This document shows, piece by piece, positions 21,322 through 50,953 of a stretch of DNA of 64,000 nucleotides. Below the pieces are notes generated by a model. The model made no database searches and had not been told where the DNA came from. It was given only the letters and a program-made list of their open reading frames with translations. Every line of letters begins with the position of its first letter. Position 1 is the stretch's first letter. Position numbers and translations under genes: made by a program. Origin of the DNA: Methanofastidiosum sp. (lineage in GTDB: Archaea; Methanobacteriota_B; Thermococci; Methanofastidiosales; Methanofastidiosaceae); NCBI GenBank assembly GCA_020854815.1, contig JAHKLW010000029.1, positions 21,821 to 85,820 on the forward strand, read 5' to 3'.

Positions 21322-21609
21322 ATGGCTACAACTACCGTAAACTCCAAGGAAGAGTTCACACGTGTAAGCTCTAAAGGGCAGATTGTCATCCCAAAAGATA
21401 TCAGGGATAATCTAGATATCAAAGAGGGCGATCTTCTAGCCGCAGTTTCTGAAGAGAACTTCATCATCTTGAAAAAGATTGACCCCAAGATTACTGAAGA
21501 AGAGAAGGTACTCCTAAAAAGAATAAAGGAATCCTGGGACAGTATAGATAGGGGCGATTACACAGAGATGGAAGGAAGCGAACTCCTAAAGGAAATGAAG
21601 AAATGGTAA
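21322..21609 (+). CDS. AbrB/SpoVT-family antitoxin
   Basis: Has the 'SSKGQIVIPKDIRDNLDIKEGDLL' swapped-hairpin motif. Overlaps the downstream RelE-like gene (ATGGTAA). Confidence 0.6.
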   Translation: MATTTVNSKEEFTRVSSKGQIVIPKDIRDNLDIKEGDLLAAVSEENFIILKKIDPKITEEEKVLLKRIKESWDSIDRGDYTEMEGSELLKEMKKW

Positions 21610-21818
21610 GGGTAGTATATTCTAAGGAATTTGAGCAGGATGTCAAAAAGATCCGCGACAAGGCTTTAAAGGAACGACTTATTAAACAAGTTAAGAAAAT
21701 ACTTAAAAATCCCGATATTGAAAAGCCCCTGCGATACAATCTAAAAGGCGAGAGGTCTGTCTACGTCCCTCCATATAGATTAGTATATGCGCTTATTGAT
21801 GACAAGATTTTTTTCTGA
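21603..21818 (+). CDS. relE: RelE/ParE-family toxin
   Basis: 71 aa, '...NLKGERSVYVPPYRLVYALIDDKIFF', a typical RelE/StbE C-terminus. Translationally coupled to the antitoxin. Confidence 0.6.
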   Translation: MVRVVYSKEFEQDVKKIRDKALKERLIKQVKKILKNPDIEKPLRYNLKGERSVYVPPYRLVYALIDDKIFF

Positions 21819-36900: not shown

Positions 36901-37085
36901 ATACAAAACAGAGAACTAGAGAGATAAGAAGATTGTGGTCTACTTACAAGAAAAATAATAATTTTGATCTATTGATAAAAGGGTTAGGAGAATTTCTTAA
37001 AGACAAATCAATTTTTGAACGAGTTAGTATATCCCCTTACAATGAAGATAAATTAAAATTGATTGTTGTGGACTTAGTTTCTTAA
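33912..37085 (+). CDS. PLD-family nuclease domain fused to SNF2-family (SF2) helicase (1057 aa)
   Basis: N-terminal HxK PLD motif 'HGKAYIF...GSSNFT'. Helicase motifs: I 'DSVGLGKT', II 'VIDESHNF', III 'LMLTATPINN', V 'MSTDVLSEGQNLQ', VI 'QRAGRIDRIGS'. Translationally coupled to the methyltransferase. Confidence 0.8.
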   Translation: MSNMPIPNEIIDNSEDNKLFSFLNWALKDYPKTNLDIATAFFDIKAYALVKNNLNGVTQFRLLLGKPPEIKSERTLGDVLSEEIRQNLEDLELSKRCNDTVKQLIDFLKKENVEVKLFEDFLHGKAYIFDNLIVIGSSNFTGAGLTRYGELNTWKQESQAIYTKKEWFEKFWAESIDFKNDLIELLDSSRYGSKEYTPYQVYIKALYELQKNDIREEQEEIDPYLPASKVNLTEFQEDAIYRIESRIEKYGFIIIADSVGLGKTWIAKKIIEKRGYYRRENILVICPAQLKSMWSKELKSIDVKDNILSQEELASEEYLKKIKNVIKDNLSTIRLVVIDESHNFRNPLSNKWEHLFNLLSEHITKKGKKPEILMLTATPINNSIWDLYWQIMLLTLQNQRTFSKDNIDNLFKFFKEVEKEGEPTLLSDLLNEISVRRTRDYIVKNYPEAFVTINNEEKRIIFPKRELENINYSLEETYAGLYREISEIITDKLSMAYYRLLDYKKDEELTKEEEFLRGRMIAIEGIFSTILLKRLESSIEAFRISIGKHVNFLNTFKEYLFEGKLVTKEFFSKYLMNLDEELEDEEIIQSLEDFNLEKYNTDKLIEDIDSDIKLLNIILDKVKTIKPKNDAKLNSLKEILFDLSKKGQVVIFTYYADTLNYIYKEINSDPQFSKIKIQAISSSGLTSKNPNERVRILEDFASHKVDILMSTDVLSEGQNLQSAQFLINYDLHWNPTRMIQRAGRIDRIGSPFSKIHVYNFFPEKELEALLRLLEYLQKKILDIDHSVGLDQTVLGEQIHPKVFGIMRRIKNKDNTVIDEIESDAFGGGEQFYQPLKDYLKSKAKEEIESIPNGVYSGLKTKKLAGIFFYYKYDNDFHFWYLYDFKNNRLIKNKTEILNYIKCPPDEKRVVPDFFEKVYEVNQVIVEDIRKVYENLSSSQEQDSQLKELASSKSTKFIRDIRNEIDRYIDEFMDTYQEGNELVEKLEQINAKLVKIPYTKQRTREIRRLWSTYKKNNNFDLLIKGLGEFLKDKSIFERVSISPYNEDKLKLIVVDLVS

Positions 37086-37142
37086 GTCGTATAAAATATT
37101 TAATAATTCATAATGCCTATATCTCAATCAATTATACTCAAA

Positions 37143-37697
37143 TTAGTATCGTTTATTTTTCTTAATTAATCTAAGTTGATTCCTCGTTTTAATTTCTCCT
37201 TTAATTAGCTTGGATTCACATTCTTTTCTGAAAGAATTATCGTTAATATCTAATAATTCTTTATATTTGTCCCAACTGATTTTTTCGTTTATAGATTCTA
37301 ACTTAGGATAAGTTGTTCTAAATTCAATTAAATAATTAATTTGTCTTGTAGATATTTCTAAATCTCTGGATAAAGCCTCTGTAATGTTGGCAAAGATAAA
37401 ATCTTTATTTTCTAAATCTTTTGCAAATCTGTAAATATTGTCCGCTAAATGCCATTTCAAAATTGAATTACCTCTAGATTTATTATTTTGTTGGGTTTTA
37501 TTGATAATATCTAATGATTTTATTATAAATTCTTGATACTTTGATTGAATTATAAAAGATTCTTTCTCTAAACTATTATTAGCAATTGCATGACTTAAGG
37601 ATATTTTAATTTTATAACTATTTTTTTCATCATTCGATTTATGAATCTCTATAGGAATTTTCATGCGGTTTGCCCCCTTAGTCTTATTTGATGCCAT
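37143..37697 (-). CDS. hypothetical protein (184 aa), downstream partner of the GHKL ATPase
   Basis: ORF overlaps the GHKL gene end; the likely start is 'MKIPIEIHK' at 37664. Has a possible HTH-like stretch 'EISTRQINYLIEF'. Confidence 0.35.
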   Translation of the reverse strand: MASNKTKGANRMKIPIEIHKSNDEKNSYKIKISLSHAIANNSLEKESFIIQSKYQEFIIKSLDIINKTQQNNKSRGNSILKWHLADNIYRFAKDLENKDFIFANITEALSRDLEISTRQINYLIEFRTTYPKLESINEKISWDKYKELLDINDNSFRKECESKLIKGEIKTRNQLRLIKKNKRY

Positions 37698-39220
37698 TTA
37701 GTCAATAAATCAGAGGTAAGTCTCTTCGAATTTTGTTCATCTACTTCATTGGCCACTATACCAAAAACAGTAGTTACTAAATGATACACCCTAACATGCT
37801 CTGCCCTAGATTCTTTAGATAGCCCGTCAGCAATTTTCCATGTAGGATGTGCGACATTAATTGTTATACTTTTACTAAGTGGATCTACCCATCCTTCGGA
37901 TAAGTTATCTGGTCTATCGTCATAGCTAATGCTAATTCCACCTTTGACTGTTCTTCTAATTCGTTCTATAGGAGTGTCGCCATCATCTTTATTTTCAACA
38001 ATCCCTTCTTTTTCTTCATCATCACCGATTGTGATGATTCCACCACCATGATGACTTCCTCCAATCGTTCCCCTTGTTGTTTGTCCACCAGTAGCAATAT
38101 TTCCTAATGATCCACCTTCATTTGATTTAATAGAAGTTTGTTTAGATATCAGATTTTGGAATAATTTGTCCGTGATATCATTAAACTCAGGCATTTTTAA
38201 AACATCGTTTATTGTTGATTCAACATCTTTATACAGTTTATCAATATCATCAACAGTAGTTTTTGGTTTTTGTATTGCTCCTACCTCTTGAAGCCATTTA
38301 CCAAAAATACCCCCTACTTTATTATGATAATGTTTCCAGAGCATAGAAGTTTTATCGAAATCTGATTTAGAAGTTCTTAGCACTCCAATCAAATAATCAG
38401 ATTTACATATGCCAGTTATACACTCTCCACATGAAGGATAAAGATTAAACCAAAAATTAGTCAATACTGTTTTCCCATGAACAACGACACTAATCCCTTG
38501 ATATTTTTCAGGTAACTTATCTTTAGTTTTATATACATATAGTATAGGATAATTATTTCCGATTTTAGTAGTAATTTTTTTAGTGGATTCTATATCCTCT
38601 TTTTTAGGCGCCCAACCTTCAATTAGTTTATCATTAACATATACTTTTTTAACATTATAATGTCCTAAAAGGATAGTATTGTAATTATCCAATAACGCAT
38701 TCTCAACAAATTCTTGATTAAAGTTTTTTTTGTCTTCTGGATGTTTTATTTTAACTTCTACATAAGTTCCATTTGATTTTAATTTATTAGAAGTTTCAAT
38801 AATCTTCCATTCAGGTATTTTTTCAATGAATTGCCAAAATGAAGCTCCTTTGAATTTTTCAGATTTCGTTTCAGTTATAATATATTCCGCTCTGTCTAAA
38901 TAAGTTTTTGCACCGACTCCTGCAAATCCAATTCCCTCACCTTTAGTTTTTGTTAATGATGCGATGTTGTGATATTGAGAAAACTGAAATTCATTCATTC
39001 CACAACCATTATCTATTACAATGAATTTATCTTTTTCAATGCATATTCTAATTTCTGTAGCCTTCGCGTCTATTGAATTGGCAAATGTTTCAACAATTAA
39101 GGCAGTGAGTGGATCGTAGGGAAATTGATCTCTAAAATCTATTATTAATTTTTTCCAATCACTTATCATGGACTGACGTATTTCTCCAACTTTCCAATTT
39201 TGACTCATTATAATCCCCAA
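37661..39220 (-). CDS. GHKL-superfamily ATPase (HATPase_c_3, MORC/MutL/Hsp90-like Bergerat fold)
   Basis: N-box 'ETFANSIDAKATEI', G1 box 'VIDNGCGMNE' and G2 box 'GEGIGFAGVGAKTY'. The C-terminal part is Gly-rich. Confidence 0.65.
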   Translation of the reverse strand: MGIIMSQNWKVGEIRQSMISDWKKLIIDFRDQFPYDPLTALIVETFANSIDAKATEIRICIEKDKFIVIDNGCGMNEFQFSQYHNIASLTKTKGEGIGFAGVGAKTYLDRAEYIITETKSEKFKGASFWQFIEKIPEWKIIETSNKLKSNGTYVEVKIKHPEDKKNFNQEFVENALLDNYNTILLGHYNVKKVYVNDKLIEGWAPKKEDIESTKKITTKIGNNYPILYVYKTKDKLPEKYQGISVVVHGKTVLTNFWFNLYPSCGECITGICKSDYLIGVLRTSKSDFDKTSMLWKHYHNKVGGIFGKWLQEVGAIQKPKTTVDDIDKLYKDVESTINDVLKMPEFNDITDKLFQNLISKQTSIKSNEGGSLGNIATGGQTTRGTIGGSHHGGGIITIGDDEEKEGIVENKDDGDTPIERIRRTVKGGISISYDDRPDNLSEGWVDPLSKSITINVAHPTWKIADGLSKESRAEHVRVYHLVTTVFGIVANEVDEQNSKRLTSDLLTKWHQIRLRGQTA

Positions 39221-39341
39221 AATTATTTTAAATTACAATCGATTTATTATCATTTTTCATATATAAGGATATGGAAAAAAATATGGGAAATAGAGAAAAA
39301 AATTTCTTTTCCATTGGAAAATTCACAAGCAATCATATTTA

Positions 39342-39695
39342 TTACTCCTTGGAAACTTCTTCCCATGATTTCATAGAAAGAGCCTCTTCCTCTTCCATTC
39401 TTCGCTCGTGCTGCTTTCTTGATTCCTCTATTTTTCGTCTCCTCTGTTCTTCATTCGCCAGGTATTGTTTGTAGCCATCAGGATCTAGCTCTGTGTAAAT
39501 CTCCTTGAAATCTAGAGGGTATTGATCCTTTTTTGATTCATAACTCATGCCTGCAATATAGTTAAGCTTTTCGCCTGATATCGCCCGCTCAAGAAACATC
39601 AGATCCTGAATATACTTGGCATTCTCATCATTATACTCCAATCCTTTCAGTTTGTTTCTAACATATCCAGTTTTAATATTCTTAAAATCTGTCAT
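39342..39695 (-). CDS. hypothetical charged protein (117 aa)
   Basis: Lies between the P-loop ATPase and GHKL genes in the same orientation. The C-terminus is very E/R/K-rich. Confidence 0.3.
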   Translation of the reverse strand: MTDFKNIKTGYVRNKLKGLEYNDENAKYIQDLMFLERAISGEKLNYIAGMSYESKKDQYPLDFKEIYTELDPDGYKQYLANEEQRRRKIEESRKQHERRMEEEEALSMKSWEEVSKE

Positions 39696-40634
39696 TCACT
39701 CATCCTCATGCATCCTACTCACAATCTGATTTCTGACTTCATCCAAATTATTTCGATTTTTCTTTATATTAAATTGAATCATCTTAATCTCATCCTCAAT
39801 ACTCATAATCTGCTCCTTGATTGACTTTATTTCTTCTTCTTTTAGACCACCTGCTTCAGATTCCTTTAATCTTTGTTCTTTTAATTCAAATTTGGCCCTT
39901 AGCATTTCTAACTGTTTCTCCCTCTTCATCATTTCATGGATTAGCTGCCTCTCCATTATATGTAGGTCCTCACTGGGGTCATTTTGGATTTCAATCATTT
40001 TGAAATTTTTTATCCACGGTTCGTAGGAGTACCCATCAGAGGAAAGCGATGTTATTATTATTTGCTCTTTTCTATCCAAAAGGTATTTCAAGAAAACAAC
40101 ACTTGCATCGTGATCAAGTCTTTCAAGTCCCTCATCAATCAAGATACACCCCCCATTCAAATTGATTCTTTCCCCGTAGACTTCACAGGTAAGTTTGTCT
40201 ATCTGGTTAAAGGTGATTTTTATCTCCTCAGGCCCACCAAGGTAGTCCTCATAGGAGAAATCCTTTAGGCTATGGCTATTATCAAAGAACAGGAGGATGG
40301 ATCTTACAATTGTAGTTTTCCCAGATGCAGTGCCCCCTACCATCATGTTATTCTGCTCAAAATCGATATCTATTTTTTTTAGAAATCTGTGATTGTCTAT
40401 TTTTATTTTACTTATCTTGAAAGGTATCCTGTATGCAAGCCCCTTCTTTCTAAGATTCTCAAGGTATTTTGACGGATCAAACCTCTTGTTGTATCCGTTT
40501 ATATTCAATTTTGTCTTGATGGCCTCCTCTGCAAGCTCTGATATATTGAAATTCATCTCTTTTGCCAGCTCCACTAGATTCTCATCAAGGTAGAGCAGGG
40601 TATTTTTCTTAGTTGATTTAGATTTCTTATCCAT
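39696..40634 (-). CDS. P-loop NTPase with N-terminal RHH/HTH-like segment and C-terminal coiled coil
   Basis: Walker A 'GGTASGKTT' and Walker B 'CILIDEGLERLD', with a C-terminal heptad-rich coiled coil of about 110 aa. Confidence 0.5.
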   Translation of the reverse strand: MDKKSKSTKKNTLLYLDENLVELAKEMNFNISELAEEAIKTKLNINGYNKRFDPSKYLENLRKKGLAYRIPFKISKIKIDNHRFLKKIDIDFEQNNMMVGGTASGKTTIVRSILLFFDNSHSLKDFSYEDYLGGPEEIKITFNQIDKLTCEVYGERINLNGGCILIDEGLERLDHDASVVFLKYLLDRKEQIIITSLSSDGYSYEPWIKNFKMIEIQNDPSEDLHIMERQLIHEMMKREKQLEMLRAKFELKEQRLKESEAGGLKEEEIKSIKEQIMSIEDEIKMIQFNIKKNRNNLDEVRNQIVSRMHEDE

Positions 40635-40758
40635 ACTTTACATATGGACATATGGATATTTAAGGTTATCTGTTTATAAAAATTAAATTCAGGCATAGAG
40701 CTAAAAATTAGTAACATAGCATCAATCCAATATATCAGAAATTGGCTTATGCCCTTAA

Positions 40759-41151
40759 CTACTTTTGATTTATCTCCTGAAGAACTGAAATCTCAAACTT
40801 GAGGCGATTTATCTCTGCATTCAAGGAGTCAATCCTTATATTCTGATCCAATATCGTTCCGTTTTTTGAAATGACTAAATCGTTTAGTCTTAGATTATCC
40901 TCTGAAAGCCTTCTATACGAATCCTTTAGAGCCTCAGCCTCTGAATCTGTCAGGCTGCATCCACCTATCTTGACAGTAGGCTTTTGGGCAGGCTGTTCTG
41001 AACTGCTCTGGGTAGTTGTGGTAGGTGTATAGCTATTTTGAGAGGGGTTTGCTATCGCGCTACCGACAAAAAGCCCTATTATAAATCCAATTAACATTAG
41101 AATCACAGCTATTTTAGTTATGTCATTAGTTGCCTCCATAATCACGCCCAT
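40759..41151 (-). CDS. membrane-anchored coiled-coil protein
   Basis: N-terminal TM helix 'IAVILMLIGFIIGLFVGSAIA', a Thr/Ser/Gln-rich linker and a coiled coil. Confidence 0.4.
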   Translation of the reverse strand: MGVIMEATNDITKIAVILMLIGFIIGLFVGSAIANPSQNSYTPTTTTQSSSEQPAQKPTVKIGGCSLTDSEAEALKDSYRRLSEDNLRLNDLVISKNGTILDQNIRIDSLNAEINRLKFEISVLQEINQK

Positions 41152-41243
41152 TGAAAAGACCTCCCTACAATATCTTCACTATTGTTTTGTATTTGTCCTT
41201 TATAAAAATATGGAAAAATATCAAAAGAAAAAAGTAAGGCCAG

Positions 41244-41429
41244 TTATTTCCTGTATTCAACTGCCCCGCCGATTGCCGCACCCATTGCAATACCAATACC
41301 TATGCCAATAGATAATCCAATTGCAATGTCTTTAATTAAAATCCCGACTATAACTCCAAGGACAGCACCCGCTCCAAATCCAATAGAAACGCCCAGCGCC
41401 ATCCTGTTCTTCTTTTCTTCCATAGGCAA
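41244..41429 (-). CDS. small glycine-zipper membrane protein
   Basis: 61 aa with two hydrophobic GxxxG-rich segments. Confidence 0.35.
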   Translation of the reverse strand: MPMEEKKNRMALGVSIGFGAGAVLGVIVGILIKDIAIGLSIGIGIGIAMGAAIGGAVEYRK

Positions 41430-41484
41430 TATTAAAAATAATTATTATTTAAATCTTTCATTTTTCTTTTGGCCCTAAAAATAA

Positions 41485-42294
41485 CTACTTTACCCCGGTA
41501 AAGATGAAATACCCAAATGAATCTCCTTCCAGCGCCTTCTGGAACTTCTTAACAAACTTTAGCATCGGGCCCAACTTCCGCCTAAGCTCTCTGTTTACCG
41601 CCATATGGTAAAGCACTCTAATCGAGATCATTATCTTCTCAGCAAAGGAATATTCCCTTACAAAAATATCTTCATAGTAGTCATTTATCTTGATATCATT
41701 AAATCCAGCTTCTTTGAATATATTCTCCCATTCATTAAGAGTTCTGATATCAGTTTCTGGCCCAATAATATTGGACATGATCATGATATTCTTCATCTCT
41801 TGATAAAATTCAGAGTCTAAAGATTCATTAGTGAAAAGATCAAGTGTGGCAACTTTTCCGCCTTTTTTTAGAACTCTTTTATAATCCTTCAAAACCATTA
41901 CAGGGTCGCTGACTAATGCTGTTATTGCCTCCCCATAGACTATATCAAAGGAATTATCGACAAATGGAAGGCTCTCAGCACTTGCCCTCTCAAAACTAAC
42001 ATTTTTTAGATTTAATTTTTCTGACTCTTCCCTAGCGAGCTCTATAAGTATCTCAGATAGATCCACACCGACAATTTCACAATCGAACTTTTGGGCCACA
42101 TGCCTTGTGATATAACCTGTTGAGCATCCAACTTCCAATATCCTTGGCCTTTCCATATCTTTGATATTAAGTAGCTCCAGTAATCTATCAGTTCCCTTCC
42201 AGCCACCAAATGTTGGCGAGGTCATAGCCCCGATGTAACCCTGAAACTCGTAGAGCCCAATCTTTCCAATTTCCTCGTTAGTTAACTTTCTCAT
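41485..42294 (-). CDS. class I SAM-dependent methyltransferase
   Basis: Motif I 'ILEVGCSTGYITRHVA' and motif II 'EIVGVDLSE', with a Methyltransf_11-like layout. Confidence 0.7.
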   Translation of the reverse strand: MRKLTNEEIGKIGLYEFQGYIGAMTSPTFGGWKGTDRLLELLNIKDMERPRILEVGCSTGYITRHVAQKFDCEIVGVDLSEILIELAREESEKLNLKNVSFERASAESLPFVDNSFDIVYGEAITALVSDPVMVLKDYKRVLKKGGKVATLDLFTNESLDSEFYQEMKNIMIMSNIIGPETDIRTLNEWENIFKEAGFNDIKINDYYEDIFVREYSFAEKIMISIRVLYHMAVNRELRRKLGPMLKFVKKFQKALEGDSFGYFIFTGVK

Positions 42295-42342
42295 TCCAAC
42301 ATAATAATGGAATTTATCATATAAATAGGTAATCTAAATTTT

Positions 42343-42448
42343 GCACTAAAAATAAATCCTATTAAAAAAATACCCGATTTTGTTTAATAAGAAGTGATCA
42401 TATTAAAGGATCCTTTTGCATTCCCAACTTCTGTTAAAAGAAAAGGCC
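42343..42448 (+). repeat. intergenic repeat element, copy A (upstream of hicB)
   Basis: Its core, 'taaaaataaatcctattaaaaaaatacc[cgat|gtg]ttttgtttaataagaag', is shared with copies C and D (copy C matches 44598..44712). In this copy the first motif reads 'gcactaaaaata' rather than 'ggccctaaaaata'. Contains the palindromes 'tgatca' and 'ggatcc'. Confidence 0.75.
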
Positions 42449-42512
42449 AGATCTAAAGATGAACTCTTAATATACGTCAATTTTATATATTCTTTATTAG
42501 TAATTAGAATGT

Positions 42513-42713
42513 ATGAAGCTAACAGTTATTTTGGAACCTCAGGAAGAAGGAGGATTCACTGTTTATGTTCCGTCTCTTCCCGGGTGCATCTCTCAAGGAG
42601 AAACAAAAACTGAAGCGTTAGATAATATCAAAGAGGCCATAGAACTATACTTGGAGCCGGATGTAAATGAGCTTGTGGAATATTCCGGAGAAAGGCTCGA
42701 AGTGGCTATATGA
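42513..42713 (+). CDS. hicB: HicB-family antitoxin (UPF0150-like)
   Basis: 'MKLTVILEPQEEGGFTVYVPSLPGCISQGETKTEALDNIKEAIELYLE' HicB N-domain fold pattern. Overlaps hicA by 4 nt. Confidence 0.65.
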   Translation: MKLTVILEPQEEGGFTVYVPSLPGCISQGETKTEALDNIKEAIELYLEPDVNELVEYSGERLEVAI

Positions 42714-42934
42714 ACTCTGCTGTCCTTTCAGGCTTAGAAGTTATCAAAATTCTAAAAAAGGCAGGATTTATTGCAGTAAGGCAAAAAGGCTCCCATGTTA
42801 GACTTGAGAAACTAGGCGAAAATGGGCTTATCAAAGTCACGGTCCCACTTCACAAGGAACTTAAAAAAGGGACATTGTTAAAAATCATCAAAGATTCTGG
42901 ATTAACACAGGAAGAGTTTGAACAGTATAGATAG
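42710..42934 (+). CDS. hicA: HicA-family toxin
   Basis: 'LKKAGFIAVRQKGSHVRLEK' (the 'GSH' motif in a YcfA-like fold). 74 aa. Confidence 0.7.
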   Translation: MNSAVLSGLEVIKILKKAGFIAVRQKGSHVRLEKLGENGLIKVTVPLHKELKKGTLLKIIKDSGLTQEEFEQYR

Positions 42935-42939
42935 TTTTT

Positions 42940-43024
42940 CTTATTAAAGGATCCTTTAAGATTCCCAACTTCTATTAAAAGACAGGGTCATTTTCTTTAA
43001 TATGATCTGGCCTTAAAAATAGAG
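42940..43024 (+). repeat. intergenic repeat element, partial copy B (3' half) upstream of secreted-protein gene
   Basis: 'cttattaaaggatcctttaagattcccaacttctattaaaagacagggtc' followed by 'attttctttaata' and 'ggccttaaaaata'. Confidence 0.65.
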
Positions 43025-43050
43025 CAAAGATTTAAATGAGATAAGAATTA

Positions 43051-43656
43051 TTGATAAATAGTATAATGGTGAAAACTATGAGAAAAATAATATCTTTATT
43101 GGTTAGCTTGTTATTTGTTGGAAGCACCTTTGGGGTGGCATCAATAACTGCCAGCGCCGTTGATCCAGACATTGAATGCTCTTCATGTGATGGTTCAGCT
43201 CCATGCCTATGTGAAGGGTCCTCTTATGGGATTAGTATGGGGACAGTTAAGGTTGGGGAAACATTTACCATTACTCATAACAAACGAGAGTCATATTGGC
43301 AATGGATAAAAGTCGATGATTCTACACGTACGGATATTTGGTATAATGAAATCGTTCCGAATGGACTTCCAGTTCGTTTGGGCCTTGTAGAACTAATAGA
43401 CTTTAGAGCATATTATACTGATGGGTCATCATATAATTACAAAGAAGCGCCCAAAAAAGGAATCGGCGTTCTTGATCACACAGTATACACATTTAGGACA
43501 GTTCGCCCCGGTACAGTGTATTTCACATTCAAATGCAATCCCCGAGAAGAGCCATGTAGTTGCTGTGATAGGGTAGTCCCAGTCGAAATAACTCCAAAAT
43601 CACATCCAATCGACTGGATACTGAGGAAGTTCGGGCTTGGCAAATTCAAAGAATAA
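43051..43656 (+). CDS. secreted Cys-containing protein with C-terminal 'PKSHPIDWILRKFGLGKFKE' motif
   Basis: Signal peptide from 'MRKIISLLVSLLFVGSTFGVASITASA' (start likely 43078). The C-terminus matches the shared motif of the 15-27 kb island. Confidence 0.55.
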   Translation: MINSIMVKTMRKIISLLVSLLFVGSTFGVASITASAVDPDIECSSCDGSAPCLCEGSSYGISMGTVKVGETFTITHNKRESYWQWIKVDDSTRTDIWYNEIVPNGLPVRLGLVELIDFRAYYTDGSSYNYKEAPKKGIGVLDHTVYTFRTVRPGTVYFTFKCNPREEPCSCCDRVVPVEITPKSHPIDWILRKFGLGKFKE

Positions 43657-43738
43657 ATTTATTTTTTATATTACAATCTTTTCTAATCAATTATTTTTTT
43701 TTACCGGTAAATTTAGAAGATAAATCTTCATTAGGAAA

Positions 43739-43936
43739 GTGATTATAATGGATTGCGTATTGTGTAAGAAACCAATTGAGAAGTATAATGCAAAATTAAA
43801 TCAGTTAAAGATTGATGAATCTAATAGGGTAGAGATATGTTCAGATTGCATTGATAAATTTCTCAACTGGCAAAAGACCATATTTGCAACTCTTTTCCCC
43901 ACAAAGGCAGCCAAGAAGTGGGCCAGTAAGAAATGA
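43739..43936 (+). CDS. small zinc-ribbon protein
   Basis: CxxC ('CVLCKK') and CxxC ('CSDCID') about 30 aa apart, with a basic C-terminus. Confidence 0.35.
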   Translation: MIIMDCVLCKKPIEKYNAKLNQLKIDESNRVEICSDCIDKFLNWQKTIFATLFPTKAAKKWASKK

Positions 43937-43960
43937 ACTTATGAAAAATTCTATAGTGCC

Positions 43961-44521
43961 CTATTTTGACTTTGAATCTCTCTTCTTCCCTTCACGATTG
44001 CACCCATAATGGTCATATCCGTCCCTATCATAGCCATCCTTGTCAAAGCCGCTGTACGCATATTTTGTCCCGTTTCTGTGAAGGCCGTTCCTATCAAATC
44101 CATTTTTGTCATAACCCTCTTTGTCAAAGCCTTCTTTGTCCCGGCCGAATCTGTCATATCCGCTTCTGTTATACCCTGCCCCATCAAATCCCTTGTCATC
44201 ATATCCGTCTTTGTCAATATTCTGAAAGTTAAATTTCCTGCCTGTGTATCTATGGATCCCCTGTTTGTTGAAGTCACTTTTATCAAAGCCCGCTTTGGAA
44301 TATCCAGATCTGTTGTAGCCCTCTCTGTCATAGCCAAGCTTATCATAGCCTTCCAAGTCATAGCCATGCTTGTCAAAGCCGTCTTTAGAATAGCCGCCGC
44401 TATCAAAAACTTCTGTATCAGAAATAGTCTCTAGATAAACATTGCATATAGGGCATTTTTCTATTTCCTTGACAAATTTAATCCCGCAGCTTGGGCATTT
44501 TTTGCCTAAAATATCGGACAT
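43961..44521 (-). CDS. N-terminal zinc-ribbon protein with about 20 tandem 'G(Y/F)D(K/R)xG' pentapeptide-like repeats
   Basis: 'CPSCGIKFVKEIEKCPICN' is followed by 'GYSKDGFDKHGYDLEGYDKLGYDREGYNRSGYSKAGFDK...GYDRDGYDHYG'. The three overlapping ORFs in other frames are repeat artefacts. Confidence 0.5.
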   Translation of the reverse strand: MSDILGKKCPSCGIKFVKEIEKCPICNVYLETISDTEVFDSGGYSKDGFDKHGYDLEGYDKLGYDREGYNRSGYSKAGFDKSDFNKQGIHRYTGRKFNFQNIDKDGYDDKGFDGAGYNRSGYDRFGRDKEGFDKEGYDKNGFDRNGLHRNGTKYAYSGFDKDGYDRDGYDHYGCNREGKKRDSKSK

Positions 44522-44592
44522 GTTAGATCATTCTCTTAATAATTGCAATGGCAATTTGATATAAATTTCTTGTTATAGAGCACGAAAAAGTT

Positions 44593-44712
44593 GGCCCTAA
44601 AAATAAATCCTATTAAAAAAATACCGTGTTTTGTTTAATAAGAAGGATTCTTATTAAAGGATCCGTTAATATCTCCAACTTCTATTAAAAGAAAAGGCCT
44701 TTTTCTTTAATA
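44593..44712 (+). repeat. intergenic repeat element, copy C (upstream of fic)
   Basis: 'ggccctaaaaataaatcctattaaaaaaataccgtgttttgtttaataagaaggattcttattaaaggatccgttaatatctccaacttctattaaaagaaaaggcc'. Confidence 0.8.
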
Positions 44713-44775
44713 GAAACTACTCCTATTAAAGAAATAATAGAAAATTTTAAATAGAATGGCCGCCTATATTAATAT

Positions 44776-45930
44776 GTGGAAGAAGAATACTATAAAGATG
44801 CATTTGGTAAAATAGAGGCGGCAAAGGGTGAGGCCGGTAAAGAATACAACGTATTTATACCAAATCCCTTGCCCCCTAAGATTGAGTTTGACCAGGAGCT
44901 CGTCTTGATACTGTCAAAGGCTGAAGAGAAGCTAGGAAAGCTATCTGGTGTTGGTTTATCTCTTCCAAGCCCTAATCTACTGATCATTCCCTACCTTAGA
45001 AAAGAAGCTATAATGAGTACAAGAATAGAAGGTACAAGAATCTCTCTGCAGGAAGTATTGCTTTCAGAGACTAAAGAGGGGGAAGAAAAGACGCCTGATG
45101 CGAAAGAGGTAATAAATTACATCAACACGGTAAACTATGCTTTAAAACATGTTGAAGATAATCAGATTGATTTAAGCCTTATAAAAAAGATGCACAAAAT
45201 ACTGATGGGGGGCGTAAGAGGGGATGAGAAGTCTCCTGGAAAATTTAGAGATGTGCAGAACTGGATTGGATCAGAATTTTCTAACGTATCAGACGCCATC
45301 TTTGTTCCGCCAAATCCCGAAGCCGTTCCAAAATTGATGGATGACCTAATAGATTACCTAAATACGGAGCACAATATTCCAGTTCTAGTAAGATGCGCAT
45401 TGATGCATTACCAGTTTGAGACCATCCACCCATTCTGTGATGGCAATGGCAGGATAGGGCGAAGCCTGATATCAGTTTATTTGTGCAAAAAGAAGAAGAT
45501 AATAAAACCATTACTATATATCAGTGAATTTTTTGAAAAGTATAGGCTTAATTACAATGAACTCTTGCTTAAAACTGGGCAGACGGGAAAATTTGAAGAG
45601 TGGATCAAATTCTTCTTAAAGGCCATTGAAGTTCAATCTGAAGATGCCCTGTTAAGGGCGCATAAACTCCTTCTGCTAAGAGAATCTTATAGGAAGCGGA
45701 TACAAAATGAAACACAGACCTCTGAGATTCTAAACATAATAGACTACTTGTTTTCTAATCCATTTGTTACAGTTGCTAAGGCTGGAAAGGTATCGGCCGT
45801 TACCTATCCCACAGCAAAGAGGTATATCGATAAATTAATCAAATATGGAATATTAAAGGAAACAAAACATCTGCAGAGAGAAAGAACTTATGTTGCCCAT
45901 GAGATCTACGAGATAATAAAAGAGATTTAA
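44776..45930 (+). CDS. Fic/DOC family protein (Fic domain + C-terminal winged helix)
   Basis: Canonical Fic motif 'HPFCDGNGRIGRSL'. GTG start in the ORF track; 384 aa. Confidence 0.8.
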   Translation: MEEEYYKDAFGKIEAAKGEAGKEYNVFIPNPLPPKIEFDQELVLILSKAEEKLGKLSGVGLSLPSPNLLIIPYLRKEAIMSTRIEGTRISLQEVLLSETKEGEEKTPDAKEVINYINTVNYALKHVEDNQIDLSLIKKMHKILMGGVRGDEKSPGKFRDVQNWIGSEFSNVSDAIFVPPNPEAVPKLMDDLIDYLNTEHNIPVLVRCALMHYQFETIHPFCDGNGRIGRSLISVYLCKKKKIIKPLLYISEFFEKYRLNYNELLLKTGQTGKFEEWIKFFLKAIEVQSEDALLRAHKLLLLRESYRKRIQNETQTSEILNIIDYLFSNPFVTVAKAGKVSAVTYPTAKRYIDKLIKYGILKETKHLQRERTYVAHEIYEIIKEI

Positions 45931-45963
45931 AACTATAAAGTTGTTCTAATTTTAAAGTAACTT

Positions 45964-46112
45964 GGCCCTAAAAATATATCCTATTAAAAAAATACCGTGT
46001 TTTGTTTAATAATAAGTGATCATATTAAAGGGCCCGTTAATCTCCTCAACTTCTATTAAAAGATAGGGCCAATTCGTTTTAATGGAATCTGGCCCTAAAA
46101 ATAAGGTCTGAT
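45964..46112 (+). repeat. intergenic repeat element, copy D plus an extra 'ggccctaaaaata' box
   Basis: 'ggccctaaaaatatatcctattaaaaaaataccgtgttttgtttaataataagtgatcatattaaagggcccgttaatctcctcaacttctattaaaagatagggcc' is followed by 'aattcgttttaatggaatctggccctaaaaataagg'. The minus-strand ORF 46006..46197 inside it is probably spurious. Confidence 0.8.
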
Positions 46113-46258
46113 TGCTTTCTGGTAATCGATTTGGAAACTCCAAATGAAAGAAAGGGGTATAAAAATAAGGCCAAAAAGAAAGCGTGGCCCATATCAAAAG
46201 AAATAAAAGTCAATTACGTCTTTAATAATAGAACATAAACTTTACAGGAGATAAAAAT

Positions 46259-46699
46259 ATGTCAGTTACTGATGAGCTAAAGAATATAGTTTCAGGAATA
46301 CCTGCAAAAATCAGCGAGAAAAAGGGAATTTATGGATTTGAAGTGCAGTTAGCTGAAAGGAAGGCATTTCTAGCTAAACAAAAGTTAATTTATTCAGCAA
46401 AGTTTAGAGTCGATGAGCAGAATAAGGAAGTTAGATTCACTGAAATGCTAAAAGAATCAGGGGCAGGGATGTCGTCTGGTGGCATTGACAGTGGAATGAG
46501 CCCTGGATTTGGTTTCAAGAAAGAATCTTACAACACAATGTCTGGTGCAAGAGAGGGAACAATAGAAGAACAGTCTAATCTTTTTGGAAAAAAATATGAA
46601 TATAAATTTGACTATGGGGCTATCAGAAAAAAATTTGAATCGAAGGCAACAGAACACGGATATAAATTTACCTACAAAGTTACAAGCGTCGGATTGTAG
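46259..46699 (+). CDS. hypothetical protein (146 aa)
   Basis: Clean ORF downstream of repeat copy D. No recognisable domain. Confidence 0.35.
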   Translation: MSVTDELKNIVSGIPAKISEKKGIYGFEVQLAERKAFLAKQKLIYSAKFRVDEQNKEVRFTEMLKESGAGMSSGGIDSGMSPGFGFKKESYNTMSGAREGTIEEQSNLFGKKYEYKFDYGAIRKKFESKATEHGYKFTYKVTSVGL

Positions 46700-46825
46700 C
46701 AAGAGAAGATTAATTTATTTTTTATATTTCAACTTAGAATAACTGGCGCTAAAAATAAGGCCAATTCCTTTTCTATATATTTAAATATGAGAATAACAAA
46801 TCTTTAGTAATTGATGGTGTTTTAA

Positions 46826-49800
46826 TTGAAATCTGATTTACTTACTGAATTAAACTCCCAACAGAGGAAGGCCGTTGAATCAACAGAAGGGCCAATACTA
46901 ATCATTGCCGGTGCTGGTAGCGGAAAAACTGGCGTTATAACAAAAAAGATTGCCTACCTCGTAGAGTCAGGGATACCTCAGGAGAATATTCTGGCTCTGA
47001 CATTTACAGACAAAGCTGCAGCTGAGATGCTTGACAGGGTGAACAAGCTTGTTGGCTCGACAGAGGATATAATCATAACAACATTCCACTCATTTTGCAA
47101 AGAGTTAATTGAAGATAATATCTTAGAACTCAAAATGAACTCCCCACTAAAGGTCATAGAGGATACGGCGCAACTAGTGTGGTTTATCAAAAACATAGAT
47201 TCGTTCAATCTTGAATTCATCAAAGTCGGGTTTAAGCCCGTCACTTTAGTTGAAGAGCTAAGAAAGATTATCTCAAAGTTTAAGGATGAGTTTGTTACAA
47301 TTGAAAAGCTTGAAAATTATATCGAAAACAAATCAGAAGAAAAACTAGACCTTGAAAACTACGAGCGACTTGAAACTCTAAAGGATATCCTAAAGGCCTA
47401 CAAATTCTATGAGGATTACAAGGCGAAAAATAATCTCGTGGATTTCGGGGACATGCTTACAAAAATCTATGAGCTTTTTAAAACTAGACCAACTATCCTA
47501 AAAAAGTACCAGGAGAGGTTTAAGTACATACTCATAGATGAGTTCCAGGATACAAACTTCATCCAGCTTCAAATTGTAAATCTTATAGCAGGAAAACACC
47601 AGAATCTCACAGTCGTTGGTGACGATGACCAGAGCATATACCGGTTTAGGGGTGCATACCTCACAAACATCTCTGAGTTTAGGCAAACTTACCCCTCCCA
47701 TCAAGAAATCGTCCTGGAGCAGAACTACCGAAGCACCAAGAAAATCTTGAGCGTTTCAAACAAATTAATATCGAACAAGCCTGATAGATTTGTGAAGAAG
47801 CTTTTCACAGAAAATGAGGAGGGTGAAAAGGTAACGGTGGCCCGGCTTGAAAATGAAGAGGAGCAGTCGCACTTCACATTAAATCAAGTTGAAACTCTTT
47901 TGAAGGACCATGACTATAAGGACATTGCCATCCTAGTTAGAAGGAAAAAGGATGCGCAGCCAATAATAGACACATTTGACAAGCACAAGATGCCCTACGA
48001 GTTTGTCGGGAACTCTGATTTCTTCAGAGAGCCGCTGATAAAGGATGTCGTCTCATTTATCAAAATCGCATCAAAACCTATTGAGTCAAACATTGAGATA
48101 GCAAGGGTCCTGCAAAGAAAGCAGAGCTCGATAAGACCAGTTGAAGTAACTAGATTCACAAGGTATGCCTACAAGAACAAGTTAAGCCTATATGAAGCGT
48201 TTGATAAGATTAAAGAAATAGATATAGAACAGGAAAAGTTTAATCACATAAAAGAAAAGCTAAACTTGATAGTATCACAAAAAAAGGTCCTTAATCTTCC
48301 TGAGTTAATTTACAAGATCCTCTTTGATATTGATTTTTACAGGTATGAGTTAAGCCTTAATAACAAGAGGAACATATCGCTTCTAAATCAGTTCTATAAG
48401 TTCACAGTTGACTACTATAATCTTTACAGGGATAGCGAGCTAGAAGATTTTATTGATTTTATTAATTACGCATCAAACTTTGAGATAAAGACCGAGACTG
48501 GAGAGGAAAATAACGTCATCCAGATCATGACTATACACACTGCAAAGGGCAAGGAATTCCCGGTCGTCATTGTCCCAGACCTTGTGAGCGGCAAGCTTCC
48601 AACAAGATATAGGAGTGACAAGTTTGAAATTCCAAGAGAGCTACTAAACGGAGCAGAGAGCGAGTTTGATGAGAGGGAGCTGCACCTGCAAGAAGAGCGG
48701 CGCCTGTTCTATGTTTCTATGACCCGTGCTATGAAAAAGCTTTTTATAACATATGCCAATAGGTACGGCGATAACAAACGTGATTCAAAAGCAAGCCAGT
48801 TTCTTGAGGAAATAGAATATACAAAAAATCCCGATATAAATTTCCTGACTCCAAAGACAGATCCCATCTCAATAAAGGAAGATTCGGTCAAGGGGTTAAT
48901 AAGGCAGAACTATATCGGTGAGATAATATCGGATCTCCATAGAAAGGATTACAGAGGGATTATACCAAAGCTCATGCTCCTAGAAAAGCTAGAGGGGAAT
49001 GATCACAAATCAATTGTCCAAAATCTAAAGGAGCTTGACTACGATGCGATACTAAAGCAGATAGAGGATGGCGAGATAAAAAAGGAAAAGATTATAGAAG
49101 AGGAGCTGACATTTTCAGCCTCACAGTTTAACACCTATAAGAGGTGCCCAAGGATTTACAAGTATAACTATGTATACAGGATCCCTACACTCCCAAAGCC
49201 TTACTTTGATTTAGGTGGCACTGTCCACAGCGTCATTGAGGAGCTCTCTAAAAAAATAATGGAAGGGGAATCCATAGATCTAGAGCTTGCAATAAAATAC
49301 CTTGATGCCTTCTGGAAGAGCAGCGGGTATTCAACAGAGCTAGAGGAAAAGCAGGCAAAGAAAGATGCGATTGATATTTTAGAGATATTTCTTAGAGAGC
49401 AGGAAAAGATGGATACAAAGATAGTTGAAACAGAAAAAAGATTTACAATAAAGCTTGATGAATACAGCATAAACGGGGTTATTGATAGAGTTGATAAGGA
49501 TGGAAATGAGTACATAATCTGGGACTATAAGACCTCTAAGACCCCTATTTCAGAAAGCGATCTAAGACGAGACATTCAGCTTTTAACTTACGACATGGCA
49601 GTAAAAGAGCTTTTTGGGAAGAGGCCAAAACAGGTGGGGCTATGGTATTTACGGCAAAACAAGAAGGTCGCTATTCAACCAAAGGATGAGGATATTGAAA
49701 AGATAAAACAAGAACTCCTTGAGACAATAAACAGGATAATGAATGAGGAATTTGATCCAAAGGCAGGCTGGGAGTGCTACAACTGTGACTATGCTCTACT

Positions 49801-49828
49801 GTGCGATCTTAAGGAGAAGAGTGTATGA
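46826..49828 (+). CDS. UvrD/PcrA-type SF1 helicase fused to C-terminal Cas4/RecB-like PD-(D/E)xK Fe-S nuclease (AddA-like architecture)
   Basis: Helicase motifs: I 'AGAGSGKTGV', II 'DEFQDTN', III 'VVGDDDQSIYRFRGA', IV 'LEQNYRST'. C-terminal nuclease 'IIWDYKTSK' with four Cys ('CPRIY', 'CYNCDYALLC'). Confidence 0.8.
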   Translation: MKSDLLTELNSQQRKAVESTEGPILIIAGAGSGKTGVITKKIAYLVESGIPQENILALTFTDKAAAEMLDRVNKLVGSTEDIIITTFHSFCKELIEDNILELKMNSPLKVIEDTAQLVWFIKNIDSFNLEFIKVGFKPVTLVEELRKIISKFKDEFVTIEKLENYIENKSEEKLDLENYERLETLKDILKAYKFYEDYKAKNNLVDFGDMLTKIYELFKTRPTILKKYQERFKYILIDEFQDTNFIQLQIVNLIAGKHQNLTVVGDDDQSIYRFRGAYLTNISEFRQTYPSHQEIVLEQNYRSTKKILSVSNKLISNKPDRFVKKLFTENEEGEKVTVARLENEEEQSHFTLNQVETLLKDHDYKDIAILVRRKKDAQPIIDTFDKHKMPYEFVGNSDFFREPLIKDVVSFIKIASKPIESNIEIARVLQRKQSSIRPVEVTRFTRYAYKNKLSLYEAFDKIKEIDIEQEKFNHIKEKLNLIVSQKKVLNLPELIYKILFDIDFYRYELSLNNKRNISLLNQFYKFTVDYYNLYRDSELEDFIDFINYASNFEIKTETGEENNVIQIMTIHTAKGKEFPVVIVPDLVSGKLPTRYRSDKFEIPRELLNGAESEFDERELHLQEERRLFYVSMTRAMKKLFITYANRYGDNKRDSKASQFLEEIEYTKNPDINFLTPKTDPISIKEDSVKGLIRQNYIGEIISDLHRKDYRGIIPKLMLLEKLEGNDHKSIVQNLKELDYDAILKQIEDGEIKKEKIIEEELTFSASQFNTYKRCPRIYKYNYVYRIPTLPKPYFDLGGTVHSVIEELSKKIMEGESIDLELAIKYLDAFWKSSGYSTELEEKQAKKDAIDILEIFLREQEKMDTKIVETEKRFTIKLDEYSINGVIDRVDKDGNEYIIWDYKTSKTPISESDLRRDIQLLTYDMAVKELFGKRPKQVGLWYLRQNKKVAIQPKDEDIEKIKQELLETINRIMNEEFDPKAGWECYNCDYALLCDLKEKSV

Positions 49829-50400
49829 CGTATCTTTTCATTGACACAGAGACTACCGGCCTTCCAAGGAAAAGGTATGCCCCTTATACCGATACGAATA
49901 ACTGGCCAAGGCTCGTCCAGATTGCCTGGCTCTACTGTGACCAGAACGGAGAAATATTGTCCTCAGAAGAGTACATAATTAAACCGGAAGGTTTTGTCAT
50001 CCCATTTGATTCTCAGAATATACACGGAATATCAAATGAGCGAGCCCATATGGAAGGAAAAGAACTGATATATGTCTTGAACAGATTCTCTGAATTTTTG
50101 AACAGATCAAATTACCTAGTTGCCCATAACATCGATTTTGATTTCAATGTGATAGGGGCAGAGCTTGTTAGAAAAGGCATTAACACTAGATTAAACTCCA
50201 TCAATAGATTCTGCACGATGGTTGGCACAACGGAATATTGCCAGATCCCAGGTGGCCAGTATGAGTTTAAGTGGCCAAGTCTTTTTGAACTTTATTACAC
50301 CTTATTTAATCAAACTTTTGAAGAAAAGCATGATGCCCTTTATGATGTAAAAATTTGCAGAGAGTGCTTCTTTGAGTTAAAGAAAAGAGGAATTATATAA
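49825..50400 (+). CDS. DEDDh 3'-5' exonuclease (DnaQ/epsilon-like)
   Basis: Exo I 'LFIDTETTGL', Exo II 'HNIDFDFNVI', Exo III 'HDALYDVKICRE'. Overlaps the helicase-nuclease gene by 4 nt. Confidence 0.7.
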   Translation: MTYLFIDTETTGLPRKRYAPYTDTNNWPRLVQIAWLYCDQNGEILSSEEYIIKPEGFVIPFDSQNIHGISNERAHMEGKELIYVLNRFSEFLNRSNYLVAHNIDFDFNVIGAELVRKGINTRLNSINRFCTMVGTTEYCQIPGGQYEFKWPSLFELYYTLFNQTFEEKHDALYDVKICRECFFELKKRGII

Positions 50401-50434
50401 AGTTACTATTTTGAAAAAGAAAAAATATTTGAGT

Positions 50435-50953
50435 TTAAGGAACAACAGTTACTCTGACGCTTGCGTATTTGGCCACATCTTCTGCAACGTGGCCCATTGT
50501 AAGTCTCTTAATTCCAGTTAATCCTGTTTTCCCAATGATTATATGATTGCAACATTTTTCATCTTCGGCTGTTTGTATTATGGTGTCGACAACCTTTCCA
50601 AGTTTCATGTCTGTCTTGACTTTCACGCCTTGTTTTTCTGCATACTTTGACATCTCTTTTAGAATATTGCTGCCTCTTTTGCATAGTGGGTCGTCCATCA
50701 TGCAACTCAGCTGCTCTTCAAAGAATGGGGAGTACCTCTTTATGTCGTCTGTTCCTTTTATTTTATCTTCCCATTCAGGAAGAAATCTGTCCATAGCTTC
50801 ATAGGATAGCTTTAATTTATCTACATCTACTACATGGAGCAGCATTACACATGCTCCAGTTTTGCCTGCTACCCATGCTGCATACTCTACAGCTTTTTCT
50901 GAAGCTTTAGATCCATCTACTGGGACCAATATTCTTCTTATCAATTCAGTCAT
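50435..50953 (-). CDS. universal stress protein (UspA family)
   Basis: 'ILVPVDGSKASEKAVEYAAWVA' and C-terminal 'HIIIGKTGLTGIKRLTMGHVAEDVAKYASVRVTVV'. Confidence 0.75.
   Translation of the reverse strand: MTELIRRILVPVDGSKASEKAVEYAAWVAGKTGACVMLLHVVDVDKLKLSYEAMDRFLPEWEDKIKGTDDIKRYSPFFEEQLSCMMDDPLCKRGSNILKEMSKYAEKQGVKVKTDMKLGKVVDTIIQTAEDEKCCNHIIIGKTGLTGIKRLTMGHVAEDVAKYASVRVTVVP

Follow-up and report, generated by a model that had tools for sequence, protein, structure and literature searches.

Short co-oriented repeats bounding accessory-gene cassettes in a Methanofastidiosum archaeon are probably recombination sites of an integron-like array

The DNA considered here, called the window, is a stretch of 64,000 nucleotides from a Methanofastidiosum archaeon (assembly GCA_020854815.1, contig JAHKLW010000029.1, positions 21,821 to 85,820 of the forward strand). 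It is chromosomal, with mevalonate-pathway genes and the genes for methionyl-tRNA synthetase (MetRS), archaeal tRNA-guanine transglycosylase, and glyceraldehyde-3-phosphate dehydrogenase present. Within the window, bordering a defence island of low guanine-plus-cytosine (GC) content at 30-41 kb, lies a series of accessory genes, mainly for defence, toxin-antitoxin, and secreted proteins, that are set apart by an intergenic repeat element of about 121 nt and by a shorter box of 14 nt, TGGCCCTAAAAATA (Table 1). The element is probably a composite att-type recombination site, and 41470-46763 a small integron-like array of mobile cassettes that has neither IntI nor attC and is serviced by an Xer/SNJ2-like recombinase. 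This reading draws on the anatomy of the repeat, the linkage of its core to a recombinase gene, the extreme conservation of that core, the common orientation of the boxes, and the insertions, deletions, and permutations among relatives that end at boxes or cores.

Four copies of 110-130 nt had been reported in the original prediction. Three full copies of about 121 nt are present (A, 42337-42457; C, 44588-44708; D, 45959-46079), while copy B (42938-43002) is a 3' half only, which aligns to profile positions 61-121 and is without the ggccctaaaaata...ttgtttaataagaag part. The positions themselves hold, since an nhmmer profile made from A, C, and D recovers 42338-42456, 44588-44708, and 45959-46080 at E values of 1e-34 to 1e-36 and copy B (42938-42998) at 2e-11, far above chance; no further matches of comparable strength occur elsewhere in the 64 kb. 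The 18-mer CCAACTTCTATTAAAAGA has 5 occurrences (0.21 expected), and GGCCCTAAAAATA, with up to 2 mismatches, has 15 (3.3 expected). The box is found at seven sites, 41470, 42341 (degenerate), 43008, 44592, 45963, 46090, and 46744, all on the plus strand and confined to 5.3 kb (41470-46763), with no comparable box in the other 58 kb of the window. The first and last of these had been recognized as short boxes, but that list was incomplete, also lacking the boxes at the 3' ends of copies B (43008) and D (46090). Distances from repeat to the next plus-strand start codon are about as had been claimed (56, 30-57, ~61-68, and 156 nt), the size and spacing of the units do exclude clustered regularly interspaced short palindromic repeats (CRISPR), and the description of a portable intergenic module tied to accessory genes (toxin-antitoxin, Fic) stands.

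Table 1. Coordinates of repeat copies, boxes, cassettes, and neighbouring genes. Positions are those of the window unless a locus is named.
Feature	Coordinates	Strand	Remarks
Box 1, TGGCCCTAAAAATA	41470..41483	+	Left array edge; with box 2 gives direct repeat TTTTGSMCTAAAAATAA around the methyltransferase segment
Cassette 1: class I S-adenosylmethionine (SAM) methyltransferase gene, 41485-42294	41484..42340	-	Whole segment absent from L035/L009 and L027
Copy A, full	42337..42457	+	Degenerate box 42341-42354, 5' half, palindrome TTAAAGGATCCTTTT, core-left ...CAACTTCTGTTAAAAGAAAAGGCC
Cassette 2: hicB 42513-42713, hicA 42710-42934	42513..42934	+	
Copy B, core only	42938..43021, including box 43008-43021	+	Begins 4 nt past the hicA stop codon
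Cassette 3	43022..44591	mixed strands	Moves as a box-to-box unit in L036 and L027
Secreted protein, 201 aa	43051-43656	+	Cassette 3
65-aa open reading frame (ORF)	43739-43936	+	Cassette 3
Zinc-ribbon protein with G-Y-D pentapeptide repeats	43961-44521	-	Cassette 3
Copy C, full	44588..44715	+	Box 44592-44605, 5' half, palindrome TTAAAGGATCC, core-left
Cassette 4: Fic-domain protein	44776..45930	+	PADLOC SoFic defence model, E 2.7e-112
Copy D, full	45959..46103	+	Between boxes 45963-45976 and 46090-46103
Cassette 6: 146-aa protein	46259..46699	+	No assigned function
Terminal box, palindromic form TGGCGC-TAAAAATA-AGGCCA	46744..46763	+	Right array edge, before the UvrD/PD-(D/E)XK helicase gene
Type IIG restriction-methylase (restriction-modification), Eco57I/MmeI-like, 1218 aa	in 30263-41151		Defence island
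HKD(PLD)+Snf2 helicase, 1057 aa	in 30263-41151		Defence island; PADLOC C3a139/DrmD-like
DUF1016-like protein	in 30263-41151		Defence island
GHKL ATPase, 519 aa	in 30263-41151		Defence island
GajA-like AAA ATPase, 312 aa	in 30263-41151		Defence island; CcdA-like N-terminus
Anchor (box-55 nt-box and 121-aa gene)	L005 2134-2292; L010 4512-4670		Also in L018, L029, L037, L050, L057, L075

The element is made of repeated CTATTAAA/TTTAATAG motifs in dyad arrangement. Its 3' part, a core of about 80 nt, reads TTTTCTT-ATTAAAGGATCCTTTAAC-ATTCCCAACTTCTAT-TAAAAGATA-GGGCCA-ATTCGTTTAATGGGATC-box, also written (TTTTCTT)ATTAAAGGATCCTTTAAC-ATTCCCAACTTCTATTAAAAGATAGGGCCAATTCGTTTAATGGGATC-TGGCCYTAAAAATA, and contains a perfect 16-nt palindrome, TTAAAGGATCCTTTAA, together with a second dyad, CTATTAAA-N16-TTTAATAG, with GGCC at its centre. 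A conserved 45-nt left part with CTATTAAA motifs is followed in the core by a box-like spacer and right arm (TAAAAGATA-GGGCCA). In the full copies, the 5' half is an inverted core copy that has diverged, and the profile matches its own reverse strand; the mirror image is obvious in the related loci L026, L031, and L033, where that version folds into one long hairpin. In the window, the 5' half of copy A has the dyad CCTATTAAAAAAATACCC-GATTTTGTTTAATAAG and its right flank, AGATCTAAAG..., is the hicB side, copy C has the near-perfect palindrome TTCTATTAAAAGAAAAGGCCTTTTTCTTTAATAGAA after core-left, and copy D is an "empty" 127-nt unit without cargo, with a hairpin GGGCCA-N18-TGGCCC in its 3' part. 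In many cases the box makes up the left two thirds of a palindrome of 20 nt, TGGCCY-TAAAAWTA-RGGCCA, in which two 6-bp inverted arms enclose an asymmetric 8-bp spacer; over all loci, the right arm RGGCCA follows 24 of the 54 distinct exact boxes. Among about 57 distinct copies, the core is near-invariant from ATTAAAGG to the box and the flanks beyond are unrelated. Right flanks past the core begin with RGGCC directly after TAAAARAWA in every class except one (L061), which fits an exchange within the A-rich spacer.

All cassette genes of the window are preceded, at 20-35 nt from their start codons, by TATA-like boxes of their own that are not part of the repeat. These boxes lie between the repeat and the gene, for example TTTTATATA at 23-31 nt before hicB and TTTTAAATAG at 25-34 nt before the Fic gene. 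The minus-strand protein of cassette 3 has an N-terminal zinc ribbon and then about 25 degenerate pentapeptide repeats (G-Y/F-D-K/R-x), with a 15-nt periodicity in the DNA; it has no match in Pfam, PHROG, or PADLOC, and a 208-aa homologue in L021 has a core copy after it.

A search for the core pattern in one genome per species (185,579 species genomes) returned 12 loci, mostly in metagenome-assembled genomes (MAGs) of Candidatus Methanofastidiosum, with a few of the 12 contigs binned to other taxa. The same pattern was found in 51 more loci from metagenomes, largely of anaerobic digesters, and the core is known from roughly 60 related loci. Of these, L059 matches one part of the window at 100% identity and L025 another part at 99.87%; both come from metagenome Ga0334890. 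L035/L009, on a 91-kb Methanofastidiosum contig, is syntenic with the window at 85-93%. At no fewer than 20 of the loci found by the core pattern, the core starts 8-48 nt past the stop codon of a gene for a tyrosine recombinase of 404-416 aa. This protein matches Phage_integrase of Pfam (5.5e-25), has the motifs R...HxxR...Y as well as LRIGEL, HxLRHTRATHL, and YVHL, and ends in a C-terminal zinc ribbon. Its best NCBIfam match is archaeal XerA (117.6 bits, under the cut-off of 220) and its closest solved structure is XerA of Pyrococcus abyssi (4a8e, E 1e-17). At E<=1e-20, 429 relatives of the family were found, among them the integrase of Geoglobus acetivorans pleomorphic virus 1 (44% identity) and, for each Methanofastidiosum MAG, several "XerC-like" paralogues. 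At one locus, L041, the core lies behind a different integrase of 332 aa.

A second set of loci was fetched through the integrase protein instead of the repeat. The core follows the genes of integrases with 77% (P0003), 74% (P0007), and 70% (P0021) identity to the query, and in diverged form that of P0031 (59%); after P0033 (56%) there are boxes only, with no core, and there is no core after P0046 (46%). In the loci of P0031 (L070-L074), the DNA after the integrase is provirus-like (N6_N4 methyltransferase, Phage_tube_2), and the spacer of a hairpin at their left junction, GGGGCA...TGCCCC, varies with the insertion context.

Conservation of the core exceeds that of the coding DNA that it adjoins. 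For 91 locus pairs, median identity is 0.90 in the core, 0.69 in the last 340 nt of the integrase gene, and 0.55 in the 100 nt past the core. Integrases that are 97-99% identical are yet followed by three different sequences downstream of the core, and the core is also joined directly to the stop codons of genes that are unrelated to one another (hicA, a viral ORF, and a secreted protein). One core variant lies within a 13-17 kb element that is viral according to IMG/VR and also encodes an integrase; the palindromic 20-mer box has no exact match in viral contigs.

Related genomes differ from the window, and from one another, by indels bounded by boxes. The 857-nt methyltransferase segment, flanked in the window by the direct repeat TTTTGSMCTAAAAATAA, is absent from L035/L009 and from L027, with the junction exactly at the box. 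A segment of 1.78 kb, likewise bounded by boxes, is present in L005 and absent from L010, and L036 has an extra cassette of 300 nt where the window has a single box. Homology at these three indels is just 14-18 nt. Several block translocations also end in boxes, and other events map to the core. Cassettes common to the related genomes (hicBA, SoFic, the secreted-protein block, the methyltransferase, and the 146-aa gene) occur in differing orders: hicBA, block 43022-44591, Fic, and the 146-aa gene in the window; block 3, Fic, and hicBA in L036; the secreted protein and hicBA in L061; and hicBA and Fic in L009, where block 3 is absent. L025, which is from the same population as the window, has integrase-core, the 146-aa gene, and the UvrD helicase, the Fic-D junction being replaced by an integrase-core junction. 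L025 corresponds to window 46024-50640 and L059 to 43162-46010, and the two disagree left of copy D (integrase C-terminus in one, Fic in the other), which points to a recent recombination event in a single population or else to a branch in the assembly at the repeat. A pair consisting of a MazE/AbrB-type antitoxin and a ParE-type toxin (window 21322-21818) has no boxes around it in the window, and the same pair, with 84-85% identical DNA, is flanked by boxes in L021 and by core and box in L004.

Orientation of the boxes is uniform within arrays (7/7 in the window, 6/6 in L005), and relative to the integrase, 41 boxes in all loci are co-oriented and 17 are opposite. In eight lineages there is a conserved platform, which consists of integrase-core, 806-3542 nt of variable genes, box-55 nt-box, and a conserved gene for a 121-aa protein. 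The box pair of this anchor is TGGCCCTAAAAATAAACCCTAAATACATTTTCACGCTAGGATAGCGATAATATTCC-TGGCCCTAAAATTAAGGCC, and its second box overlaps the start codon of the 121-aa gene, which is Cys-rich and truly coding, with substitutions by codon position (66/36/151) that indicate purifying selection. The protein has no family match and could be an accessory factor of the system. No known RNA genes were found near the related loci, and no Rfam RNA lies beside the anchor gene. L064 and L075 have upstream chromosomal genes in common (photolyase, DUF4013) and differ in the first cassette. No terminal direct repeats, as expected of circular cassette contigs, were found in any of the fetched loci.

If these sites are used as their arrangement suggests, the basic joint would be the box of 14-20 nt, TGGCCY-TAAAAWTA-RGGCCA, with its inverted arms around an asymmetric spacer; the core of about 80 nt would be a more elaborate version of this joint, and the full 121-nt element would add an inverted core copy on the left. 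The recombinase, which would be supplied in trans in the genome of the window, would act on the A-rich spacer of boxes and cores, and exchange of DNA there would integrate, remove, and rearrange cassettes of 0.1-2 kb that have promoters of their own. The left arm would come in a simple form (TGGCCY) or a complex one (the 45-nt core-left, in which the CTATTAAA motifs may be accessory binding sites), while the right arm RGGCCA would arrive as part of the new cassette. The integrase-proximal core would have an attI-like role, the boxes would be the cassette joints, and copy D would be an empty unit between boxes. More tentatively, and with the balance of probability somewhat against it, Methanofastidiosum may possess an integron analogue that has not been described before and has an origin independent of IntI and attC, with a fixed platform of zinc-ribbon Xer/SNJ2-like recombinase and 80-nt site 3' of its gene, arrays of self-expressing cassettes joined by 20-bp sites, and integrase-less arrays that are serviced in trans.

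Several observations weigh against recombination sites of this kind. There is no integrase in the 64-kb window itself, as judged by tblastn with four integrases and by Pfam on the 30 larger ORFs, and most loci were gathered through the core search, on which the proportions given above are conditional. Inferred crossover points are not uniform and no single one is established: between the window and L009 the crossover is at GGATCC or further left, between L025 and copy D it is right of 46046, and other events are in the box, so that the GGATCC palindrome, the TAAAAGATA-GGGCCA core site, or the box is the candidate, depending on the comparison. There are also internal deletions between CTATTAAA motifs, for example in L036. 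Because the crossover points vary, some of the rearrangements may be due to homologous recombination or slippage between repeats, and for part of the pattern homologous recombination between repeats is a serious rival. In the provirus-like P0031 loci, the element has its left junction 78 nt before the integrase gene, at the GGGGCA...TGCCCC hairpin, and the core is internal. The P0033 lineage has boxes without a core, L077 has a core with no boxes within 8 kb, and box-like 14-mers occur inside coding sequence at some loci.

Among wholly different explanations, passive repeats survive best, although they are unlikely. The repeats would then be palindromes of the repetitive extragenic palindrome (REP) kind or terminator-insulators, with GC-rich hairpins and T-rich tracts serving to terminate transcription or stabilize mRNAs; breakpoints would fall in them since dispersed repeats invite homologous or microhomology-mediated recombination, and the core would be the 3' flank of an integrase gene, copied along with integrase genes that then decayed. 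The oligo-T tract TTTTCTT does stand before the core, right after stop codons, the box is able to form a 6-bp GC stem, and decayed integrase remnants are found beside the core in L003, L045, and L049; the varying crossover points and the presence of both box orientations in provirus-like loci are also as this explanation would have them. However, the homology at the three box-bounded indels is very short, boxes are co-oriented within arrays despite their palindromic arms, and those of the window are limited to one variable stretch of 5.3 kb rather than scattered over intergenic regions. The fusion of the core to stop codons of genes as unrelated as hicA, the viral ORF, and the secreted protein, and its conservation in excess of the adjoining integrase gene, also argue for sites that are acted upon.

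The location of the full-length copies, 10 of 11 of which are 33-157 nt upstream of a gene start, would suit the earlier proposal of a promoter or 5' untranslated region cassette, here taken as a promoter/operator module in which the CTATTAAA/TTTAATAG dyads are TATA-like boxes or transcription-factor sites that co-regulate accessory and defence genes. The motifs are AT-rich dyads with regular spacing, and the box that overlaps the start codon of the 121-aa gene is just past a TATA-like GATAATAT. Most of those 10 copies, however, precede one Fic cassette in different genomes and are not independent. For the 33 core-only copies with enough flank, it is the 3' end of a same-strand upstream gene that is followed (26 of 33, at 4-97 nt), while downstream of them a gene start (15) is no more frequent than a gene end (18), at 30-285 nt. 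Cassette genes have TATA-like boxes of their own outside the repeat, minus-strand genes lie on both sides of box 41470, and another gene of that strand begins right beside box 44592. A promoter cassette is therefore improbable, and this part of the earlier proposal is not upheld.

Less probable still is another of the earlier proposals, a non-autonomous transposable element like a miniature inverted-repeat transposable element (MITE), near accessory genes by chance. The sharp left and right boundaries amid many unrelated flanks would suit such an element, as would copy D, the empty 127-nt unit between direct box repeats; but the flanks of 57 copies have neither terminal inverted repeats (TIR) nor a target-site duplication (TSD), no transposase is associated, the linked enzyme being a tyrosine recombinase, and copies are few (12 loci in 185,579 species genomes and 51 in metagenomes, with 1-4 copies per locus). 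A structured non-coding or cis-regulatory RNA, also proposed earlier, is the least probable of all, for despite strong sequence conservation and folds of copies C and D that are better than those of shuffled controls (z -2.4 to -4.8), copies A and B fold no better than shuffles (z +0.2, +0.4), predicted folds of single copies, as RNA and as DNA, differ from one copy to the next, Rfam gives no match for the whole window at the gathering threshold or for 41300-46900 at E<=1, the consensus fold of the alignment has only -3.95 kcal/mol with 0 of 15 predicted pairs showing compensatory covariation, and in the diverged core of L070 the palindrome is changed on one side and the 3' hairpin arm is lost, with no compensating change. 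Segmental duplication, named in the original prediction as the explanation that would undo it, was rejected: genes flanking the copies are unrelated to each other, and the similarity is therefore not that of a duplicated segment.

As recombination sites, the repeats and their cassettes can be compared with several known systems. Like integrons, they have a tyrosine recombinase gene with a complex site beside it and then a variable run of short, mostly single-gene cassettes between repeated sites, either beside the integrase or free-standing. Cassette content and order vary between close relatives, toxin-antitoxin and defence genes are cargo in both, and integrons likewise include integrase-less arrays (clusters of attC sites lacking integrases, CALINs), as in the window. 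The sites of chromosomal integrons, such as the Vibrio repeats (VCRs), are highly uniform within a lineage, as are those described here. In archaeal integrons, attI is immediately downstream of intI (Ghaly et al. 2022, PMC9668308). The recombinase, however, is not IntI (66.8 bits to TIGR02249, cut-off 265; 36.2 to NF011946, cut-off 435), and inspection of the alignment revealed no canonical attC R''/R' boxes (RYYYAAC...GTTRRRY), with CTTTAAC/TCCCAAC and GTTTAAT breaking the consensus. Sites here are conserved in sequence and not just in folded structure, only the L031 type folding into one long hairpin; the minimal joint is a 20-bp palindrome of duplex type, and cassettes carry their own promoters. 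The system thus works most like an integron, yet has neither of the marks that define one, IntI and the attC consensus. The main text of the archaeal integron paper (PMC9668308) makes no mention of Methanofastidiosa, the system is described neither there nor in a review of archaeal tyrosine recombinases, and a literature search found no description of it and no paper linking Methanofastidiosum to such elements.

The short inverted arms around an asymmetric spacer of 6-8 bp resemble dif, loxP, and FRT, the right arm being present in 24 of 54 boxes. Junctions are inside such a site for the three indels and several translocations, with other events at the core. The pdif modules are small groups of genes, including toxin-antitoxin pairs, that are bounded by sites of this type. 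These modules of Acinetobacter plasmids and the integrative mobile elements exploiting Xer (IMEX) depend on Xer, and the recombinase here is Xer-like, but the sites here are direct rather than inverted, and a dedicated recombinase gene with an extra zinc ribbon and tail is beside a larger site of 80 nt. The integrases of SNJ2 type and of pleolipoviruses (PMC5861418, PMC8371274) belong to the same broad family, to judge from the 44% identity to that of Geoglobus acetivorans pleomorphic virus 1; some Methanofastidiosum members are at the edge of provirus-like regions, and one core variant is in a predicted virus. Units here are nevertheless single-gene cassettes of 0.1-2 kb instead of whole viruses or plasmids, and several of the integrases are at fixed chromosomal positions beside a variable array. 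Known archaeal integrases mostly target tRNA genes (PMC8371274), whereas no tRNA genes are present in the 64-kb window or in 16 related loci. REP sequences, bacterial interspersed mosaic elements (BIMEs), and MITEs are also short palindromic intergenic repeats with sharp edges that serve as recombination breakpoints, but the repeats described here are few, clustered, co-oriented, tied to a tyrosine recombinase, and without TIR or TSD.

If the repeats are the sites of a cassette-capture system, then cassette capture by site-specific recombination would have evolved more than once, in this case in an uncultured methanogen lineage whose recombinase is unrelated to IntI and whose sites are unrelated to attC. 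Such a system would account for the shuffling of defence and toxin-antitoxin genes in these archaeal defence islands, and would be of interest for research on archaeal mobile elements and defence islands alike. Box and core together would be a sequence signature by which variable gene pools could be located in archaeal metagenomes, and the compact pair of recombinase and site might be tried out for genetic work in archaea. Pipelines that look for integrons by way of IntI and attC would overlook systems of this kind.

The defence island beside the array occupies window 30263-41151, next to MetRS, with a GC content of 28-32%; in the syntenic contig L035 another segment of about 4 kb is at its place. 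On the other side, window 46826-50400 encodes a 1000-aa UvrD helicase fused to a PD-(D/E)XK nuclease (GajB/AddB-like), and the start of a DEDDh exonuclease gene overlaps its stop codon. This block is on the opposite side of the cassettes in L027 and may itself move with the array. A second short repeat, ...TTTTCCCTATTTTCCC... plus the palindrome-like TCCATATTCTTATAAATATGGAAA, occurs at window 39252-39282 and 41191-41221, and is also found beside boxes and just past integrase-core units in L005, L010, L021, L037, L053, and L064.

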